NCBI GenBank assembly: GCA_964016885.1
Contig: OZ024740.1
Location: 163,866,001 to 163,930,000 of the forward strand
DNA length: 64,000 bases
DNA from: Eledone cirrhosa
Lineage: Eukaryota
Reading direction: 5' to 3'
How positions within the stretch are numbered: position 1 is the stretch's first letter; each line of letters starts with the position of its first letter. Below the pieces are notes generated by a model. The model was not told the DNA's origin and made no database searches. It saw nothing but the letters and a program-made list of their open reading frames with translations. This document shows, in pieces, positions 15,679 to 58,135 of this stretch. Made by a program: the position numbers and the translations under genes.

Positions 15679-15686
15679 TATATATA

Positions 15687-16002
15687 GGAAAAAAAGATGA
15701 AATCGAAAATGCAACTAGAGTCTTTTTAAGAATATTTATTTGGTTCCTTTACCGGTTTCACAGTTCTTATGCTTTTCAAAAGTAGAGTTGAGATGGAGGG
15801 CTTGTGTTTTTTTCTCGCAAAAACCACAAACCCTCCATCTCAATTCTACTTTTGAAAAACACAAGAACTGTGAAACCGGTAAAGGAACCAAATAAATATT
15901 CTTAAAAAGATTCCAGTTGCATTTTCGATTTCATCTTCTTTCCTTATACTCTTTCACTCGTGTAGGACATCTCGTTTTTTTTCATTTTGGAAAAAAACGC
16001 TC

Positions 16003-16158: not shown

Positions 16159-16352
16159 AATATGTTGAAAAGGTAACACACAAGAGAGAGATATACAGTG
16201 CGTTATCAATAATACAGGGAAAAAACCCACCAGTGTATGGAATCTATTGTCTGCCTTTCATAGGTTATAGATTCCATACACTGGTGGTTTTTTTCCCTCT
16301 GTATTATTGATAACGCACTGTATATCTCTCTCTGGTGTGTTACCTTTTCAAC

Positions 16353-16357
<5 letters not shown>
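16159..16357. repeat. Fold-back inverted repeat (about 89-bp arms, about 19-nt loop)
   Basis: AATATGTTGAAAAGGTAACAC..GGAATCTAT paired with ATAGATTCC..GTTACCTTTTCAACATATT. Confidence 0.9.
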
Positions 16358-16388
<31 letters not shown>

Positions 16389-16463
16389 GTTGAAAAGGTA
16401 ACACATATATATTGTTTTTGGCAGAATGACTCTCCCAACGTATAACGATATATATATATATAT

Positions 16464-16877
16464 ATGTAAAATAAAGTTAAATAAAAAGTCAAATGTTTAA
16501 AATTTAGCTTCGTTTATTACTGCTATATATATTTCAGTGACAGCCATCTTTGGCTGTGACCTCTTCAGGCAGTCCGAATTAGTGTGGTATAGACAAGTAC
16601 ATATGTTGTTGAGGTGTATAATTTTGTCAATACTCTGATATGTCCAGTTCCTGGTTAGGTTGTTATTTCTCTGAGGAACTGGAATCATATGATTCCAGTT
16701 CCTCAGAGTATTGACAAAATTATACACCTCAACAACATATGTACTTGTCTATACCACACTAATTCGGACTGCCTGAAGAGGTCACAGCCAAAGATGGCTG
16801 TCACTGAAATATATATAGCAGTAATAAACGAAGCTAAATTTTAAACATTTGACTTTTTATTTAACTTTATTTTACAT
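16464..16877. mobile_element. Fold-back Penelope-type insert with 175-bp inverted arms, each carrying a hammerhead
   Basis: Arms 16464-16638 and 16703-16877; internal perfect palindrome 16669-16708. Confidence 0.88.
16768..16822 (+). ncRNA. Type I hammerhead ribozyme (mirror copy 16519-16573, -)
   Basis: ACTGC-CTGAAGA-ggtcACAGCCaaagatGGCTGTcact-GAAA-TATATAT-A-GCAGT. Confidence 0.82.
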
Positions 16878-16964
16878 TACTCCGGAGTAACCAAACCAAC
16901 CTGCGCACTTCGTCGACTGCTCCAGCCTGCATACTGAGGTGTTGGTATACAACCAACATATACT

Positions 16965-17029
<65 letters not shown>

Positions 17030-39950: not shown

Positions 39951-41140
39951 ACTCATTGATCCATTTTGCACTAACTCTGCATCAAGCACCCTCACCTAAA
40001 TATTAACCAATCAAGGATCCAATACAGCTATCTGTTGGATGAGTATTGTATAGTGCCAAAAACGAAACCAATCAGTTTAGCAGAAAGTTTCCAGACAAGA
40101 AACACGCATATTTTGCTATCCTCAAACACGTTTACACATGGCATGAAATATAACTAATCCGAGATGGCTAGGTTTCATCTTCTAACTGGATATACGAAAT
40201 CCATTATGTCTTGACAACAACATGAGGTAACATTATGTTATTCACAGACACACTTTGTACACTGTTCCATATCAGAATGTATTTCCTTCGTCACATTCAC
40301 AAACAGTATTGAAAATATGTTCTTCGGCAAATAAAAATGTTTTGTTCATAATATTTCAACTAGCGATTGCTCTACTCCACGCACGACCACCATAAATTAA
40401 TGACCAGCTCAACACAAGTATTGGTAGAGCGTCAGACACCATGCTTTGCAGTATTGTTATGGTCCTTTGCATTCTAAGTTCAAATCCTGCCGAGGTTAAC
40501 TTCGACTTTCATACTTACTAATTCGATAAAATAAAGTACCAGTAATGGACTGCCGTAATGGATTTGTGCCGAAAAATAGAAACACTATTAATGTGCAATA
40601 AGAGCAAAATATAACGACATTGCTCAATTATTTTATCTAATGTTGTAATAACACAAGGAAATGTTGTTTGTGTATTTTTTTTAATATTTGCTCATAGGCT
40701 TTTACAATTTCGCTCAGCCAACAACTATTAAAAAGTGAGTTGCTTAAGATAACAATTTAATCACAAATTGTTGCTATCTTTTAATACACTCCAACAAGTC
40801 ATCAAATTATGTACAATAAAAACAAATCTTATTAATTTGCTCAGGGAATATAAAGAAAATGTATATACACTGATAATTGCAATTGTATGTAAATATTTTG
40901 TTTTTGTATTGTTTATTTTATGTTTTCTATTATGTATAATATATTGATTTAATATTGATTGTTTTTTGTAGTTGTTTATATTAAAAGTCTGAAAATATTT
41001 TTATACATCTTACACTAATATTTATAAGATAATTTATAATAACAATTACATAATCTAATTACATTACAACGATAATTTATTATTAATATATATCCTCTTT
41101 AACTAGAGTTATTACAAGCGTTGCCTTAAAAAAATATTAA

Positions 41141-42097
41141 ACTAGACATGAAAAATGCGCAAGCTCAAAAGTGCCACAGAATGTTATAATAAACCTTCAA
41201 AAGTGTGGGACTAGAGTTGTTGCTAAAAAATATTGTAATCATTATATATCGTACATTCTGTGGCATCCTTTATAAAAATAGCTTAAACCAACGAAGCCTT
41301 TATTTTTACGCTATTTCACTTAGTTAATTCTTAGAGTGTAACATATAAAAATAAATACATCTATGTTTAATGTAATAACAGCTATAAATAATTACGTAAT
41401 ATTATTATCATATACTCATAGTAACAAAATAATTGTGTTGAAAATTAATATGATGCTTATATGAACGATCAAATCTATAATGATAATTTCTTAAATATAC
41501 TAATAGTAAAATAATTTAGTTATCTATTGTTACATTTTCATAGAACTATAATATTAACAATAGTATTGCATTATCAAATTTTTATCACTACAAACTTTCA
41601 TATTGGAATTACCTTAAGCCACTTATTATTACTTCGCTTTCGTACTTTTACAGCTGTAGATATTGCGCTGTATCTTATATCTAATATCAATATCTCATGG
41701 TAATTTGCATGCAGTGTAAAATAGGTTTATTAATAACTTTAATATGAAATGTATTATACAGGGCTGCGGAGTCGGCCAAAAATTAACTGGCTCCAACTCA
41801 GGATCCGATACTCCATTATTTCCTAAATTTCAGCTCCGCAGCTCTGTTATTATATTAATTAATTTATTTTATAGTTGTAAATCATATTTTTATATGTTAC
41901 ACTCTAAGAATTAACTAAGTGAAATAGCGTAAAAATAAAGGCTTCGTTGGTTTAAGCTATTTTTATAAAGGATGCCACAGAATGTACGATATATAATGAT
42001 TACAATATTTTTTAGCAACAACTCTAGTCCCACACTTTTGAAGGTTTATTATAACATTCTGTGGCACTTTTGAGCTTGCGCATTTTTCATGTCTAGT
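41141..42097. repeat. Long inverted repeat with 213-bp arms and a spacer of about 530 bp
   Basis: 41141-41353 is the reverse complement of 41885-42097. Confidence 0.92.
41759..41846. mobile_element. hAT-like MITE remnant
   Basis: CAGGGCTGCGGAG..CTCCGCAGCTCTG; flanks GTATTATA and TTATTATA (7/8 TSD match). Confidence 0.65.
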
Positions 42098-42356
42098 ATA
42101 TATATGTATATATGTATATATATATATATATATGTGTGAAGGCGTGTGGCTGAGTGGTTAGAGAATTGGATTCGCAATCGTAAGGTTGTGAGTTCGATTC
42201 CTGGACCAGGCGATGCGTTATGTCCTTGAGCAAGACACTTTATTTCACGTTGCTCCTTCTACCTGGAGTTGCGACCGATAGATAGTATTAGCAATTGGAA
42301 AGACCGACGGAAACATTGTTCCCTCGGTCCGATTTGACGAAAGTCGATCGTTCCTA

Positions 42357-44471: not shown

Positions 44472-45307
44472 ATACATTATGAAGAGAGAAGAAACATTAG
44501 ATATAATTAATAATAAGATATATCATACCTAAACTCCTTCTTTACTCCCCGACTACGTAGTTTCGTGGCATATTATACAAAAACACTACATCACAGAGAT
44601 ATAGAATTTTTGTGAGGTCTGCCGACTTATCAAGAGGATACTTCATTAAGAGTTTCAAAACACGTCTGTAGGACGTGAGATAGCATCCTGAAAGGCGGAG
44701 GGGGAGTCAATCACGTGATACAGCGGTCAAGAAACAGAGCTAAGCCTCTTATAAACCATGAAAAAATACCACAGAGGCGGAGGGGGTACTTATATCAAAG
44801 CAGTAGAAGAGGTGGCTAAGGTGGCGAGAAGTATGAGTAATGGTAGCTTTCCAGCAGTCACTACACTTCAAAGGTTACTCGACCAAAGGGAGTTATAAAC
44901 AATATATAGAAACACACAGATACATGCGGACACATACATATACATGAATATATCCACATATATCTTTGAATTAGTGGTGCCAACCTCAAGCGATGTTGCT
45001 CTATGAATAACTGGGACAAAATAATCCGAATGGATTAGATTGATTCAGTATCATACATTATGAAGAGAGAAGAAACATTAGATATAATTAATAATAAGAT
45101 ATATCATACCTAAACTCCTTCTTTACTCCCCGACTACGTAGTTTCGTGGCATATTAGTAACCCCTCCGCCTCCGTGGTATTTCTTTCATGGTTATAAGAG
45201 GCTTAGCTCTGTTTCTTGACCGCTGTATCACGTGATTGATTCCTCCTCCGCCTTTCGGGATTCTATCTCACGTCCTACGGACGTGTTTTGAAACTCTTAA
45301 TGGGGTA

Positions 45308-45400
45308 TCCTCTTGATAACTCGGCAGATCTCACAAACATTCTATATATCTGTGATGTAGTGTTTTTGTATAATATGCCACGAAACTACGTAGTCGGGGA
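45308..45400 (+). ncRNA. Type I hammerhead with U3-A8 core (mirror copy 44546-44638, -)
   Basis: TCCTC-TTGATAA-..GGCA..TGCCAC-GAAA-CTACGTAGT-C-GGGGA; palindromic stem III, GUC site. Confidence 0.75.
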
Positions 45401-45451
45401 GTAAAGAAGGAGTTTAGGTATGATATATCTTATTATTAATTATATCTAATG

Positions 45452-45881: not shown

Positions 45882-46126
45882 CAGAAATAGCCATCGAAAC
45901 GGCTTGAGCTCTGCCGTCGGGGTCATACTTTTCCTATATATATATATATATAGATAGATAGATATACACATACATATATATATATATACATATATATATA
46001 CATACACATACATATATATATATATATATATAGATGTAGAAGGTGAGTAATATTGTAGAACAATAAAACTAGGCATATATCAGATAAGTAGCACTCAACA
46101 GTTGGTAGAACTGGAGTATATATAAT

Positions 46127-46199
46127 AAAGAGGAATTAAAAGATGGTTAAAAGAGTTCCATATATGGAACTCTTTTAAGCATCTTTTAATTCCTCTTTA
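46127..46199. repeat. Near-perfect palindrome of about 73 bp
   Basis: TAAAGAGGAATTAAAAGATGGTTAAAAGAGTTCCATA paired with TATGGAACTCTTTTAAGCATCTTTTAATTCCTCTTTA. Confidence 0.9.
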
Positions 46200-46200
46200 C

Positions 46201-46521: not shown

Positions 46522-46628
46522 AAAATGGAATGTTTATTAAATATGATCTTATTTATTTATATCTGTCCCCGAACTACTTCCTAATGGTTTGTACATATTA
46601 ATATACCTATGCACATATATATATATAT

Positions 46629-46949
46629 AATACGATATTTATAAATGGAAACTATATTTATAAAACCATATTTATTTCATTATACATATTTCAAGGACAC
46701 CAAGTTAAATTATGGTGTACTTTCATCAGACAAAATATAATATAGATCAGTTTTATAAATAAATATTGACATACCCTTAAATAATGCAACCATTACTGTT
46801 GGAAGCTCCCGGGAGCTTCCAACAGTAATGATCTATATTATATTTTGTCTGATGAAAGCACACCATAATTTAACTTGGTGTCCTTGAAATATGTATAATG
46901 AAATAAATATGGTTTTATAAATATAGTTTCCATTTGTTAATATCGTATT
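46629..46949. mobile_element. Fold-back Penelope-type insert with arms of about 121 bp carrying hammerheads
   Basis: Arms 46629-46749 and 46829-46949; perfect palindrome 46791-46830. Confidence 0.87.
46841..46905 (+). ncRNA. Type I hammerhead ribozyme (mirror copy 46673-46737, -)
   Basis: TATTTTGT-CTGATGA-AAGcACACCA..TGGTGTcCTT-GAAA-TATGTAT-A-ATGAAATA. Confidence 0.78.
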
Positions 46950-47032
46950 TTTACTCCAAATATTTGTTGAGTGCTTTATATCAGTTATAAAAATATTTGC
47001 TTGTTGTATCCCAACAATTTAAAAAGAACTTT

Positions 47033-47119
<87 letters not shown>

Positions 47120-47592: not shown

Positions 47593-47834
47593 TAGAGATG
47601 AGATGGCGGGTCTGTAGTTTTTCTCACATCTGGTTGGTCTTTGAATGTTACTTGTTTTATATAGAAAAAAGTGGCTCGAAACGCCAGGTTTTTAGAGAAG
47701 TAATTTGATTGGTTGGTCAATAAGTATAATAAATTTCGCGCCAGTTACAAAAGTTCTTCAAATAAGGGGGGGTGGGTGGGTGGTGGTATCAGGTTGTTTT
47801 TTCATATATGAGTGTTTGAATTTCTTTTTACTTA

Positions 47835-48270
47835 AAAAAAGGGGCTCACGAAGGCTTTTTTAAAAATGTAATTTGATTGATTATAAATGAAATTAAGGTT
47901 GTCACGTGACCATGTTCATTAAATTTCGTGCCCGTATTTGGGAATTTATTTTGTAGCCTTTTAGAGAATTTTATGACAATAAAAAAAGTGGCTCACGAAA
48001 GCTTTTTCTTAAAAATGTAATTTGATTGGTTATAAATGAAATTATGGCTGTCACGTGAACAAGTTCATTAAATTTCGCGCCCGTATTTGGGAATTTATTT
48101 TGTAGCCGTTTAGAGAATTTTATGACAATAAAAATAGTGGCTCACGAAGGTTTTTTAAAAAAAAATGCAATTTGATTGGTTATAAATGGAATTATGACTG
48201 TCACTTGAACAAGTTCCGCGCCCGTATTTGGGAATTTATTTTGTAGCCTTTTAGAGAATTTTATGACAAG
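47835..48270. repeat. Tandem repeat of about 147 bp, three units, in the Penelope 3' UTR
   Basis: GGCTCACGAA..ATTTGATTG.TTATAAATG..CCCGTATTTGGGAATTTATTTTGTAGCC..TTTATGACAA occurs three times. Confidence 0.88.
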
Positions 48271-48951
48271 CAAAAGATAATGGTTAAGAGAAATGGGATG
48301 GGAGAATTGTTCTGGTTCAGTGAATATGGCTAGTTCGCTGGGGTGTCAGAGTTCAGATTTTCTATTGAAATAAAGAAAGTAGACATATGTATGTTTATTT
48401 GTGTGTTTGTGTGTGTGTGTAGGAAGATAATACTATTGGTAGAAATGGGGGAGGGAGTTATGTGTGTGTGGGGGGAGTATGTTAAGATGGAGAGAATATA
48501 TATATTTTATGTGTGTGTGTGTAGGAAAGTGATTCTATTAGTAGAAATGGGGGGGGGGAGTTGTGTGTGTGGGGTGGGTGGTGGGGGTGGGTGGTGTTAT
48601 GTGTGTGTGGGAGTATGGTTAGCATGTTAAGATGAAGAGAATATATATTTTGTGTGTGTGTGTGTGTGTGTAGGAAAATGATTCCGTTAGTAGGAATATT
48701 TTTGAATGAACATATTTTCCTTACCTATTCGTATTTGTTCTGTTGTATTGTCAGCGCAAACGTATGTTATGGTTTATTTAGTTCGGGTTTTTATTTTCTA
48801 AAGTAGGTGTTATGTGTGTGTGTATGTGTCTGTTTGGATGGTTAGCATGTTATGGTGTTGACGTAATGTATATTAAACCATATTTAATGCTGGTCTATAT
48901 TTTTGAATAAACATATTTTCCTTATTTATTCGTATTTGTTCTGTTCTATTG

Positions 48952-51430
48952 TCAGCGCAAAGGTAAACATGGGAAGACTTGGAATTTGGGTGTCTTATTA
49001 CTTGCGCAAATGTCTAGATGTGCGCTTAGTGGTATCTGTCTCGTGGTTGGATCTCGTAATTGTTGGCGATGAACTGTCATTCTATTTCTGAGTGTGAGTT
49101 TAGTTTGTCCTATATAATCTTCATTGCATCCTTTACATTTAATGGCATAAATTAGATTTTTTGATGAGCAAGTGAAGTGATTTTTTACAGCAAAATTTTG
49201 TCCTGATTTAAATGTATACGTGTTCCCTTCAATGAGGTGAGTGCAGGTTCCACAATTAGAGGGGCCACATATTTTGACAGTTGGTTGTGGGTTTGTGGTA
49301 GGTAATTTGGCATTGGTGAGTAATGTTTTCAGTGATTTCGGTTGTCTTTTGCTTTTGATTAATTTGTGTTTCAAGGGCTTTTTTCATTCTTGAGTCTTGT
49401 TTCAGTAGTGGGATGTTCTTGTGAATAGTGTTGTAAGCTTCCGCATTTCTTGGGTTGTGTGTTGAGATATATGATAGAATATTGGACGTACCTTGAATTT
49501 GTTTCTGTTTTCGTAATTCATCAATGCCTATTACTTTAGCCCTTTCTATTCCATTATTTATTTGTAACGGTGGGTACTGTCTTTCGAGTAGAATTTCCTT
49601 TAATTCTTGAAGTCTTTTATTTCGCGTTTCATAATTGGAGACAATTGTGCAAATTCTTCTTTCTAGGTTAAAAGGAATGTTCGTCTTCGTGTGCTTTGGG
49701 TGGTTGGAGGTGAATAGCAGGTATTGTTTGTAATCTGTTGGTTTGTAGTATATGTCAGTTTCAATATTTGTGTCTTTTTTAAAGATTAAGATGTCCAGAA
49801 ATGGGAATTGATCTTGGCTGTATTCCATTGTGAATTGGATGTGGTTATTGATGCCGTTTATTAAATTTTTGAAATCATTCAGTTGGTCGAGTGTGTGGGG
49901 CCAAAGAATGAGACAATCATCCAAGTAGCGTTTCCAATTCTCTGATAAATATTTGTGGAAGTTCAATCCGTATTTTGATTTGGACTGTTCATAAATCTGG
50001 ACTTCTGAGTATGCCATGACTAAGTTGGCATAAGTCGGAGCGGCTTTTGTACCCATCGCAGTCCCCGATATTTGTTTGTAATTACTGTCATCGAAATCAA
50101 AAAAGTTGTTCCGTAAGATAAATTTTAATCCCTCGGTGATGAAGCTTTTTTCTATTCTGTCAGGTATCTCATTGGGATATTTCTCTAGCCAGAATCCTAT
50201 TGCTTGTAGTCCGTATTGGTGTGGGATCGTTGTGCAGAGATTCACTACATCGAAAGACACAATAATAGTATCGTTGTTGACATGTTTGGGGAGGTGGTTT
50301 AAGAGGTCTAGATCGTCTCTTACAAGGCTTGGTATGTGTTTGAGAATTGCTTTTAGTAGTATGTCTATAAAGTTGCTCAGTCTGTGTGTTTCACCTTGTG
50401 GGCCCGCTACAATTGGTCTTAATTTAAGGTCTGTGGGGTATTGTGTGTTCACGCAGGCTGAAGTGGATTGTTTACAGGCATCGTTAATTATTTTACACTT
50501 GTGGATCTTCGGAAGTCCGTAAAGGTTGCTGGTTTTGTATTCAAAATATGTTAAATAATCGCGTTTCTTTTTAGTTAAGTCTTCCTGGTATGCACAAATC
50601 AGTGTGTTTATTCTGGTCATTGTTTTTGATTGCTGGTAGTTTTTTTACTCTTTCATAGTAATTAGTATTTTGTAAGAGAGAGAGCATAGAATTTTTATAT
50701 TTTTCAGCATCCATAATGACAACATTACTTCTCTTGTCCGCTTCCTTAATTATAATGTCCGTATTGTTTTTTAGTTCATGGATAATCTCCCATTCCCTTC
50801 GACTCGTGTTGGGTTTGGGTTTAGGTTGCGGTAGTTCATGGCATGGGAATGTGGCTATGTGGTCACAAAATTTGTCCAGAACTCTGTTTCTACCTTTTGT
50901 TGGGTTGTAGCTGCTTTTATTCCGTACAATTGATTGGTCGTTATTCTCCTTGTCAAAGAATTCCTCTGTGAGACGTAATTTTCTACAGAAGTGTGAGATA
51001 TCGTTATTTATCTCATTGAGGTTAGAGTATTGTGGTGTTGGTGTGAATTTCAGTCCTTTGGAGAGAATTTTTACTTGTTGGGCTGAGAGGTTTGTATTTG
51101 AAAGGTTGATTATTTTCGGTTTTTCAAAATCGATTTGTGCCACCGGGTGTCGTGGGTCCTGTAGTCTTGGTCTAAAAAATGATTTTTCTGGAATGTTTTT
51201 TCAATGGTATTATTATATCTAATGGCATTTCCCCTGTTGTTGTGTGGTCTTGTATAGAAGTTTCGGACGTATTGAGGTTCGGTTTGTTGATATTCCGGGT
51301 TGTAGATTTTGTTCCTTTGTGTGGGTTGGGATCTATGATTTTGGAACATGCTCTGTGTGGGCAGGAGTCTACGGTTTGGGAATAGGTTTTGTGTGGGTTG
51401 AGATCTGCGGATCGGGTCCTGTCTTGTGAT
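48952..51430 (-). pseudogene. Penelope RT, Cys-rich linker and GIY-YIG endonuclease; frameshifted
   Basis: LSKGLKFTPT, IKEADK, LYGLPKIHK, RPIV, SFDV, GTAMGT, RYLDD, FLD, SNHP; CGPSNCGTC; LIYAIKC..C..YIGQT..RM..H. Confidence 0.92.
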
Positions 51431-52573
51431 CACAACACACACAAAACCTATTCCAAAACCGTAGAAAAAAGACACAAATATTGAAACTGACATACACTAC
51501 AAACCAACAGATTCCAAACAATACCTGCTATTCACCTCCAACCACCCAAAGCACACGAAGACGAACATTCCTTTTAACCTAGCAAGAAGAATTTGCACAA
51601 TTGTCTCCAGTTATGAAACGCGAAATAAAAGACTTCAAGAATTAAAGGAAATTCTACTCGAACGACAGTACCCACCGTTACTAATAAATAATGGAATAGA
51701 AAGGGCTAAAGTAATAGGCATTGATGAATTACGAAAACAGAAACAAATTCAAGGTACGTCCAATATTCTATCATATATCTCAACACACAACCCAAGAAAT
51801 GCGAAAGCTTACAACACTATTCACAAGATCATCCCACTACTGAAACAAGACCCAAGAATGAAAAAAGCCCCTGAAACACACAAAATAATCAAAAGCAAAA
51901 GACAACCGAAATCACTGAAAACATTACTCACCAATGCCAAATTACCTACCACAAACCCACAACCAACTGTCAAAATATGTGGCCCCTCTAATTGTGGAAC
52001 CTGCACTCACCTCATTGAAGGCAACACGTATACATTTAAATCAGGACAAAATTTTGCTGTAAAAAATCACTTCACTTGCTCATCAAAAAATCTAATTTAT
52101 GCCATTAAATGTAAAGGATGCAATGAAGATTATATAGGACAAACTAAACTCACACTCAGAAATAGAATGAGTTCATCGCCAACAATTACGAGATCCAACT
52201 ACGAGACAGATACCACTAAGCGCACATCTAGAGATTTGCGCAAGTAATAAGACACCCAAATTCCAAGTCTTCCCATTTTACCTTTGCGCTGACGATACAA
52301 CAGAATAAATACGAATAAATAAGGAAAATATGTTTATTCAAAAATATAGACCAGCATTAAATATGGTTTAATATACATTATGTCAACACCATAACATGCT
52401 AACCATCCAAACAGACACATACACACACACATAACACCTTCTACTTTAAAAAATAAAAACCCGAACTAAATAAACCTTAACATACGTTTGCGCTGACAAT
52501 ACAACAGAACAAATACGAATAAGTAAGGAAAATATGTTCATTCAAAAATATTCCTACTAACGGAATCATTTTC

Positions 52574-52670
<97 letters not shown>

Positions 52671-53888
52671 ATATATTCTCTTCATCTTAACATACTAACC
52701 ATACACCCCCACACACATAACACCCATAACACCCCCCACACAACTCCCTCTCCCATTTCTACTAATAGAATCACTTTCCTACACACACACACATAAAATA
52801 TATATATTCTCTCCATCTTAACATACTCCCCCCACACACACATAACTCCCTCCCCTATTTCTACCAATAGTATTATCTTCCTACACACACACACAAACAC
52901 ACAAATAAACATACATATGTCTACTTTCTTTATTTCAATAGAAAATCTGAACTCTGACACCCCAGCGAACTAGCCATATTCACTGAACCAGAACAATTCT
53001 CCCATCCCATTTCTCTTGACCATTCCTTTGCTTGTCATAAAATTCTCTAAAAGGCTACACAATAAATTCCCAAATACGGGCGCGAAATTTAATGAACTTG
53101 TTCACGTGACAGCCTTAATTTAATTTATAATCAATCAAATTACATTTAAAAAGAAGCCTTCGTGAGCCCCCTTTTTTAAGTAAAAAGAAATTAAAACACT
53201 CATATATGAAAAAACAATCTGATCCCCCACCCCTTATTTGAAGAACTTTTGTAACGCGAACTGGCGCGAAACTTATACTTATTGACCAACCAATCAAATT
53301 ACTTCTCTAAAAACCTGGCGTTTCGAGCCACTTTTTCCATATAAAACAAGTAACATTCAAAGACCAACCAGATGTGAGAAAAACCACGGACCCTCCATCT
53401 CAACTCTACTTTTGAAAAGCAGAAGAACTGCGAACCCGGTAAAGGAACCCAATAAATATATATATTTTTTAAAAATAAGACTCCAGTTGAATTTTCGATT
53501 TCATCTTTTTTTCTTTCTCCTCCCCCCTCTCTCTCTCTCTCTTTATATATATATATATATTTGTGTATATGAGTATGGAGAGATATGCATGTGTGTATAT
53601 ATAGATTTAACGTTATTATTGAGTACCTGTGTGTGTGCGCATATGTGAGCAAAAGATCACACCTTTATATATGCGTGTGTTCGTATTTCCATGTAGACAC
53701 ACATACACTTATGTGAGAATGTATACGTTTACGTACTATGACGTATATGCGTGTGTGTATGTTTATGTTCTTGATATTTATTTATATATTTTTTCCCCTC
53801 AATTTTTTGCCCGTTATTTGATTTCAGCCTCACTTTTATATTTCCTAAATTTTGTTTTCAAATTCATATTTAATAAACATTCCATTTT

Positions 53889-57088: not shown

Positions 57089-57228
57089 GGTTTATTGGTT
57101 CACCACTGGATAGAACTGGTCGTTCCGTATGGTCAATCTCGATGTAATATTAGGAACAGCACTCGATGTAATGCAACTCACCCGTCTTCGTTTGTGTTGT
57201 TGGTGGTGGGAGTACGGAGTTAATTATT

Positions 57229-57633
57229 ATAAAATAACAGGAGGCTGGACTTATGTAAGTCCTTAAAGGTTTATTATACTATAAACATTTCAATGACCGG
57301 GTTCAGTATGAATCCGGTGACATCATCAGGTATTCGAAATTTAACAAAGGAATATAATCCATGGGGCTGAAAAGGCAGAGAGAGAAGAAGGCGGCCACAC
57401 ATTTAGCTCTTTCTAGTTCGGTCGGCCGCCTTCAAGCCGACCGAACTAGAAAGAGCTAAATGTGTGGCCGCCTTCTTCTCTCTCTGCCTTTTCAGCCCCA
57501 TGGATTATATTCCTTTGTTAAATTTCGAATACCTGATGATGTCACCGGATTCATACTGAACCCGGTCATTGAAATGTTTATAGTATAATAAACCTTTAAG
57601 GAATTACACCAGTCCAACCTCCTGTTATTTTAT
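57229..57633. mobile_element. Fold-back palindrome (arms of about 198 bp, 9-nt loop) with a hammerhead in each arm (57529-57586, +)
   Basis: Centre TTCGGTCGGC-cgccttcaa-GCCGACCGAA; ATAC-CTGATGA-..ACCGG..CCGGT..-GAAA-TGTTTAT-A-GTAT. Confidence 0.85.
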
Positions 57634-58135
57634 TATATATATATATATATCGTTATACTTGGGGAGGGTCATATTTGTGTAATATTGCCAGAATTAATAA
57701 CAGAACACACTCACTGTTTGGTTGGTTTTCGCTTCTCGCTGTCTTTTATATCGGTAATCTAACTTACTCGGTCTTCAATGTTGCCATTGACTGACCGACG
57801 GTCAAAAATAATACAGATACAATATAGACACACACACATATATATAGTTTATCATAAATATTTCGTTGCACATCTGCAATATCGTCAGTGGTGTTATATT
57901 TTCCTCCTGTTGTGTTGTATGTCTACGCCATTTTTATTCAGTCTGTCTATATATTTATTTATTTATTTGCTTGTTTGTTTATTTTATTTCGTCTTCTTTG
58001 CGCATGCGTTTGCGTGTGAGTATAGTGTTATGTTTGCTGTGTGATGGGTGACTAGTGTGTGTTTATGTGCTTGTTGTTATTGTGCTTGTGTATGTATTTA
58101 TTTATTTATTTATTTATCTTATTTTATTTACTTAT

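Follow-up and report, generated by a model that had tools for sequence, protein, structure and literature searches.

How does a perfect palindrome of 40 bp, with no loop at its centre, come to lie between the inverted arms of a short insert? The question is posed by positions 16,464 to 16,877 of a 64,000-nucleotide stretch of the Eledone cirrhosa genome (hereafter the window, to which all coordinates refer), and posed again by a second insert within it. The original prediction was that the 3' end of a cDNA primes on itself, copies back about 20 nt and then skips along its own strand.

Two palindromes and the inserts that contain them

A palindrome search of the 64-kb window recovered perfect, loop-less 20+20 palindromes at 16669-16708 and 46791-46830, exactly at the positions given beforehand. 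They are two of just four non-simple perfect palindromes in the window with arms of at least 10+10; base composition would yield about 2e-7 centres per 64 kb with arms this long or longer. The first insert, of a family here called F1, has inverted arms at 16464-16638 and 16703-16877 that are 175 nt long and 100% identical; those of the second, of family F2, lie at 46612-46749 and 46829-46966 and are 92% identical over 138 nt. In each case the palindrome overlaps the start of the second arm, by TCAGAG (16703-16708) in F1 and by TG (46829-46830) in F2, overlaps that had been pointed out beforehand and are visible in both sequences. The features of the two inserts are listed below; r and f number natural copies of F1 and F2, which served as family references in place of a consensus.

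16440..16466, no strand: left (TA)n target microsatellite of the F1 insertion, from the sequence
16464..16688, plus strand: untailed F1 arm, r527-751 of the natural reference copy, complete to the fold-back point, in cDNA polarity; contiguous 98-100% matches elsewhere in the genome
16639..16668, plus strand: F1 'spacer', absent from the other arm; belongs to the family and forms the distal half-stem plus loop of the natural hairpin
16669..16708, no strand: perfect 20+20 F1 palindrome, centre between CAT and ATG, within the natural 8-nt palindrome TCATATGA
16703..16708, no strand: 6-nt F1 microhomology CTCTGA / TCAGAG at the 31-nt skip
16709..16966, minus strand: tailed F1 arm, r701 down to about r407, tail at about 16878-16966
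16967..17027, no strand: right (TA)n flank of the F1 insertion, from the sequence
46629..46810, plus strand: untailed F2 arm, f390-571, complete to the fold-back point
46750..46790, plus strand: F2 'spacer', 41 nt of family sequence absent from the other arm, with 2-nt microhomology CA/TG
46791..46830, no strand: perfect 20+20 F2 palindrome, centre between CCC and GGG; the read-through family sequence is CCCGGATAG, in which the natural palindrome is only CCGG
46829..47038, minus strand: tailed F2 arm, f510 down to f301, tail at about 46955-47038, then (TA)n

In both inserts the tailed arm is the arm with the skip. Each arm thus has what the other lacks (a tail of about 90-120 nt on one side, the 31 or 41 nt on the other), and it follows that neither is a pure copy of its partner.

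The palindromes join copies of abundant short repeats

The segment between arm and palindrome had been taken for a unique spacer. Instead, the 225-nt F1 stretch made up of arm, 'spacer' and half palindrome has contiguous matches in the genome that are 98-100% identical (at least 1163 candidates), and the equivalent 171-nt F2 stretch also matches contiguously (at least 728 candidates). Both supposed spacers thus belong to their families, and the opposite arm is merely missing 31 nt (F1) or 41 nt (F2). The families span about 583 nt (F1) and 410 nt (F2), and neither holds a reading frame. Read-through copies run on past the palindrome centre (...GGAATCATATGAATTC... in F1, ...CTCCCGGATAGTGG... 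in F2), which shows that the centres sit on natural palindromes, TCATATGA and CCGG, respectively.

The outer ends of F1 and F2 adjoin (TA)n, and each family has two alternative ends, untailed and tailed, about 90-120 nt apart. (TA)n adjoins both window insertions and most sampled loci, and in such flanks target duplications are unreadable. F1 also flanks a 3.3-kb internal region in which one frame matches GIY-YIG and another, with YxDD, resembles the reverse transcriptase of the window: in the F1 partner L088 the GIY-YIG match scores 22.7 bits and the YxDD frame matches the window reverse transcriptase with an E value of 0.001, while the remaining frames of partner elements mostly found no match in Pfam. 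Both palindromes are head-to-head joints between inverted copies of abundant short Penelope-like repeats in (TA)n.

A part of the F1 words is also present in two sequencing runs labelled as other organisms (X1 and X2, share 0.22 and 0.10), and the family may be shared with relatives. Near one F1 copy (locus L021, 1828-4497, minus strand) an 889-aa frame with endonuclease/exonuclease/phosphatase, RVT_1 and PHD matches belongs to an unrelated LINE-type element.

A looser arrangement, a hairpin followed by a jump, had been described for a large Penelope in the same window, and it is indeed present.

47778..51464, minus strand: large Penelope-like element with RT-like (49256-50644) and GIY-YIG (48952-49383) frames
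51368..51465, no strand: 38-nt inverted stub at the 5' end of the large element (51368-51405 / 51428-51465), 22-nt loop, 92% complementary
51466..53233, plus strand: inverted 5'-truncated copy of the large element, equivalent to about 49785 down to 47778

The inverted copy resumes about 1.6 kb inward of the stub. The GIY-YIG match at 48952-49383 reaches 25.3 bits (cutoff 22.6), and that of 49256-50644 to RVT_1 is weak and below the cutoff.

At least six further inverted-repeat structures occur in the window (57225-57637, 15683-15948, 16160-16405, 46125-46200, 41138-42100 and 44495-45451), most of them adjoining (TA)n and with arms separated by 0-19 nt or by a few hundred. Among them are two perfect palindromes, one of 35+35 around a TA core (16336-16405) and one of 16+16 (46147-46178). 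Fold-back inserts seem to be common in the E. cirrhosa genome.

Hammerhead and microRNA models

The two inserts had also been labelled hammerheads. A search with the Rfam hammerhead models returned no match, either at the gathering score or at E values up to 10, and what remains of the label is a hammerhead-like motif recognised by eye: CUGA(A/U)GA, a helix of about 9 bp, GAAA and the palindromic UAUAUAUA / UAUGUAUA, with an extra U before GAAA. The minimal hammerhead motifs described in such repeats are themselves atypical, according to the parts of Cervera and de la Pena 2014 (PMC4209133) on which we draw. The idea that the fold-back point is the hammerhead cleavage site was rejected on inspection: the motif lies some 80-115 nt downstream of that point and the cut site further downstream still.

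Rfam plant and animal microRNA-precursor models score up to 140 bits at 16495-16846, below their thresholds. Such scores on a palindrome are a likely source of false hairpin-RNA calls.

Each family folds back at a fixed point

A genome-wide census had been proposed as a check. Conducted for F1 and F2, it found the exact 28-nt fold-back joint at 164 places in F1 and 66 in F2, with none for reversed-pattern controls; read-through joints number 618 and 1138, respectively. In F1 a single end point is common to four types of junction: 618 read-through, 225 directly before (TA)n, 164 loop-less and 25 hairpin-primed (discussed below). The 225 copies that stop there directly against (TA)n indicate that the point behaves as a discrete DNA end of a new strand. 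Neighbouring copies in the match lists, counted by eye, stand head to head in 13 cases against 1 (F1) and 14 against 0 (F2).

Forty-five F1 fold-back loci were sampled: 40 of 50 listed loci, the window copy and four found earlier. Both flanks are common to only one pair among the 45, so these are separate sites. The median likeness of arms is about 0.98 within a locus compared to 0.92 between loci. Two loci about 4.2 Mb apart on contig C2 (L056 and L057) are the same fold-back locus, with both flanks in common (99.8% and 94%); this is a segmental duplication carrying the palindrome.

Chimeric fold-back reads, arising in sequencing or assembly, might mimic such a joint, and no bridging read has been demonstrated at the window locus. 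This explanation must nonetheless contend with 164 and 66 loci whose arms have diverged down to about 80% identity, with a duplicated locus pair that carries the joint, and with opposite-strand joints within the F1 stretch in raw reduced-representation reads from other samples under the same species label (29 reads with 8 starts in X8, 23 reads with 6 starts in X9). We find an artefact scarcely credible. Raw reads, which had been put forward as a further check, thus provide strand-switch joints at the level of the family, and among these reduced-representation reads none proves the skip specific to the window. Short-read contigs at the F1 locus likewise give family-level cover, with no piece across the centre; a perfect palindrome is presumably uncrossable for contigs of this kind.

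Four things are observed directly: how the inserts are built, that each family folds back repeatedly at one point, how often each class occurs, and that a pair has its tail on one side (described below). From these we infer a sequence of events at insertion, and we hold this reading to be probable, though well short of assured. The fixed point would be the discrete end of a first-strand cDNA, set by the 5' end of the RNA or by a strong stop. The 3' end of the cDNA would fold back and prime on the short natural palindrome at its terminus, pairing either with its own strand or with a sister cDNA of the same sequence. About 20 nt would be copied back, and in both window copies the template would then slip, guided by microhomology, past the hairpin of the element. 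The tail would end up on one arm only through a further event, for instance a second priming or cleavage of the hairpin intermediate by an endonuclease at the tail boundary.

Stubs and skips

What follows the joint varies from locus to locus. The 45 sampled F1 loci fall into these classes:

Two complete arms: 16/45 loci
Stub plus skip: 8/45 loci
Stub plus restart: 2/45 loci
Stub only, 16-53 nt and then flank: 18/45 loci
Both arms short: 1/45 loci

Five additional F1 loci comprise one complete, two stub-only, one restart and one stub joined to a tail alone. Among 33 F2 loci, 18 have two complete arms, six are stub-only and nine show a stub plus skip or are complex. The perfect arm, or inverted stub, is anything from 14 to 222 nt long. 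The original prediction had looked for a recurrent 20-nt length and had named the want of one as evidence against itself; on this count it is partly contradicted. What the census upholds in each family is the fixed place of folding, and not a fixed length of palindrome.

An identical joint at many loci, followed by stubs of variable length, could also be inherited: a palindromic master copy would be transcribed and re-inserted, and the stubs would be its 5' truncations. Stub lengths are, however, bimodal, at most 53 nt or complete, with nothing between among 19 stub-only loci. Furthermore, such a master copy should yield pairs with two untailed ends at about 40% of loci, and just one is seen in 29. 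We judge inheritance of the fold-back to be very improbable.

To gauge how often copies lose internal sequence in the absence of a fold-back, 20 read-through copies per family served as controls; internal deletions were found in 0/20 (F1) and 1/20 (F2). Skips near the centre occur in 18 of 83 fold-back loci, compared to 1 of the 40 read-through copies (Fisher p = 0.006). The short inverted stub followed by a microhomology skip, inferred in the prediction from the window alone, is therefore a recurring class. The microhomology at skips measures 1-6 nt, which is compatible with a rival account in which insertion produced complete palindromes that later lost 31 nt and 41 nt through palindrome instability, for example when replication slips from one short direct repeat to another. 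In its favour, some pairs are complete, with arms that are perfect over up to 222 nt. Several observations oppose it: the F1 window arms, 100% identical over 175 nt, mark a young copy; the near ends of skips lie 15-36 nt from the centre in 7/8 loci, and the centre is always retained; and the 31-nt skip of the window has exactly one other occurrence, again in a fold-back insert, whose flanks differ and whose identity is 92%, thus an independent one. Later loss strikes us as improbable, and we return to copy-back and slippage at insertion as the preferred reading.

A joint predicted from the natural hairpin

The F1 sense RNA is predicted to form a natural hairpin (z = -2.3) with the fold-back point at its 5' base. 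The F1 window stub corresponds to the near half of the stem and stops within the loop, and the far base is where the skip lands; in F2, the predicted fold has a natural stem of 7 bp, and the window stub stops at the junction of this stem with its loop. From the F1 fold, and before any search, we derived the joint that hairpin self-priming should leave, ...CTGGAATCATAT running directly into CAGAGTATTGACA.... Genome-wide there are 25 occurrences, 10 of them exact and 15 one mismatch away. Of 18 such loci retrieved, 16 show the geometry foreseen, an arm up to the point and then an inverted arm from the base of the hairpin. Self-priming gains accordingly from these 25 joints and from the fixed fold-back point; in its simplest form it falls short at the window itself, where neither arm is purely templated by the other.

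One tail in each pair

If one arm were simply copied from the other, their 3' ends should match. Among loci with two arms, one end is tailed and the other untailed in 28/29 cases in F1 (P about 2e-8 under independence of the two ends) and in 17/18 in F2; stub-only F1 loci are mixed (10 tailed, 7 untailed and 1 other). That the pairing of a tailed with an untailed end is nearly universal means that pure self-copying is insufficient.

The same pairing is what one would expect if both cut strands of the target primed a cDNA, one at the tailed and one at the untailed start site, and the 3' ends of the two cDNAs, of like polarity, were then joined by pairing of the natural palindrome or by a template jump, a skip being the end of the shorter cDNA. 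To this account also belong the inability of either window arm to template the other, the far ends of skips (r581-r701), all of which lie before the natural hairpin, and the loci in which a stub is followed by a restart (L003, L032 and L111) or by a tail alone (L112, L149, L154 and L156), which are easier to explain if a second cDNA is joined on. In the portions of PMC11167929 used here, a Penelope-like protein was purified and found to cut both strands and to extend them, starting at two sites; those same portions report no difference in start site between the strands. The account further faces a tail of about 90-120 nt where those of published Penelope-like units, in the sources at hand, measure 30-40 bp. 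The hairpin-primed loci follow the tail rule too (14/16, the hairpin arm being either tailed or untailed), so two cDNAs are not required. Two separate first strands are thus conceivable, and we give the proposal only limited credence. Given that hairpin-primed loci obey it, the tail rule is no proof of two cDNAs.

The four tail-only loci, one in F1 (L112) and three in F2, consist of a stub or a whole inverted copy joined to a piece of tail. At three of these loci the two pieces meet at the tail boundary, a hint that the boundary is a point of breakage or stopping.

Within the preferred reading, fold-back priming at the cDNA end, the partner in pairing may be the same strand or a second molecule. 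Loop-less fold-backs are 6.5 times commoner than hairpin-primed ones even though the hairpin is the more stable 3' fold, which counts against the explanation in its same-strand form and favours priming between two molecules. The F2 centre points the same way: at CCGG, folding of a single strand would leave a loop of only 2 nt, and pairing between two molecules is favoured. Restart and tail-only loci lend further weight to the two-molecule version, as does the extension of both target strands in vitro in the sections of PMC11167929 cited above. Same-strand priming is favoured, on the other hand, by the hairpin-primed class and by the landing of the skip at the hairpin base.

It is tempting to bring all this into a single scheme, in which a discrete cDNA end self-primes on the hairpin or terminal palindrome of the element and the endonuclease opens the intermediate at the tail boundary. 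We offer this tentatively and would not wager on it. Were it true, one scheme would account for inverted pseudo-LTRs, junction palindromes and the one-sided tail, and the second-strand step of Penelope would be resolved.

Comparison with known systems

LINE-1 elements acquire 5' inversions by twin priming, in which the 5' part is inverted and joined through microhomology during target-primed reverse transcription. There the parts derive from different stretches of one RNA, whereas the arms of F1 and F2 represent the same stretch and meet at the same joining point. A second parallel comes from reverse transcriptases in vitro, which can begin second-strand cDNA by hairpin self-priming, a folded 3' end being extended along its own strand. 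This geometry is common to the 25 hairpin-primed F1 loci, and for the F1 enzyme such priming is a candidate activity; the loop-less centres differ, requiring a loop of 4 nt or less, or the pairing of two molecules.

Two other classes of element were considered and set aside. A DNA transposon of Foldback or MITE type, which would have symmetrical terminal inverted repeats, target duplications of fixed size and a partner encoding a transposase, is at odds with the asymmetrical ends (tailed and untailed), with the majority of single, non-inverted copies (618 and 1138) and with a partner that encodes RT and GIY-YIG. Animal non-LTR retrozymes are short non-autonomous derivatives of Penelope terminal repeats with hammerhead-like motifs, described as tandem arrays in the portion of the preprint consulted (bioRxiv 10.64898/2026.07.22.740005). 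A retrozyme locus would consist of hammerhead-bearing units in tandem that give rise to circular RNAs; sampled F1 and F2 copies are dispersed, single or inverted, and by genomic arrangement we do not class them as such.

The closest likeness is to endonuclease-bearing Penelope-like insertion units, which carry pseudo-LTRs. In the sections relevant here, Craig et al. 2021 (PMC8557442) report inverted 5'-truncated copies, a one-sided tail and a bias to (TA)n, and Arkhipova et al. 2013 (PMC3846280) consider the junction palindromes of inverted Penelope copies best interpreted as self-priming, so that the mechanism put forward in the original prediction as a candidate was already in print. F1 and F2 share with these units, as far as the same sections describe them, the head-to-head inverted copies, the junction palindromes, the tail on one end, the (TA)n targets and a partner with RT and GIY-YIG. 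They differ in being short families devoid of reading frames and of any Rfam hammerhead match, and in the longer tail given above. The structure is real, its architecture and the idea of self-priming are already published, and what this genome adds is a sizeable set of joints that can be counted. For annotation, palindromes of this kind should be read as ordinary scars of Penelope insertion, not as new hairpin genes or microRNA precursors. The cycle by which Penelope-like elements form tandem and inverted repeats is called still undefined in the cited part of PMC8557442; to this problem the young and abundant families F1 and F2 bring hundreds of independent joints whose place is known and whose classes can be counted (read-through, TA-joined, loop-less fold-back, hairpin-primed, and stub plus skip), and which can be compared with the products of purified enzymes in vitro. 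To the published picture of Penelope-like units the census adds two elements, a fixed fold-back point and the stub-plus-skip class.
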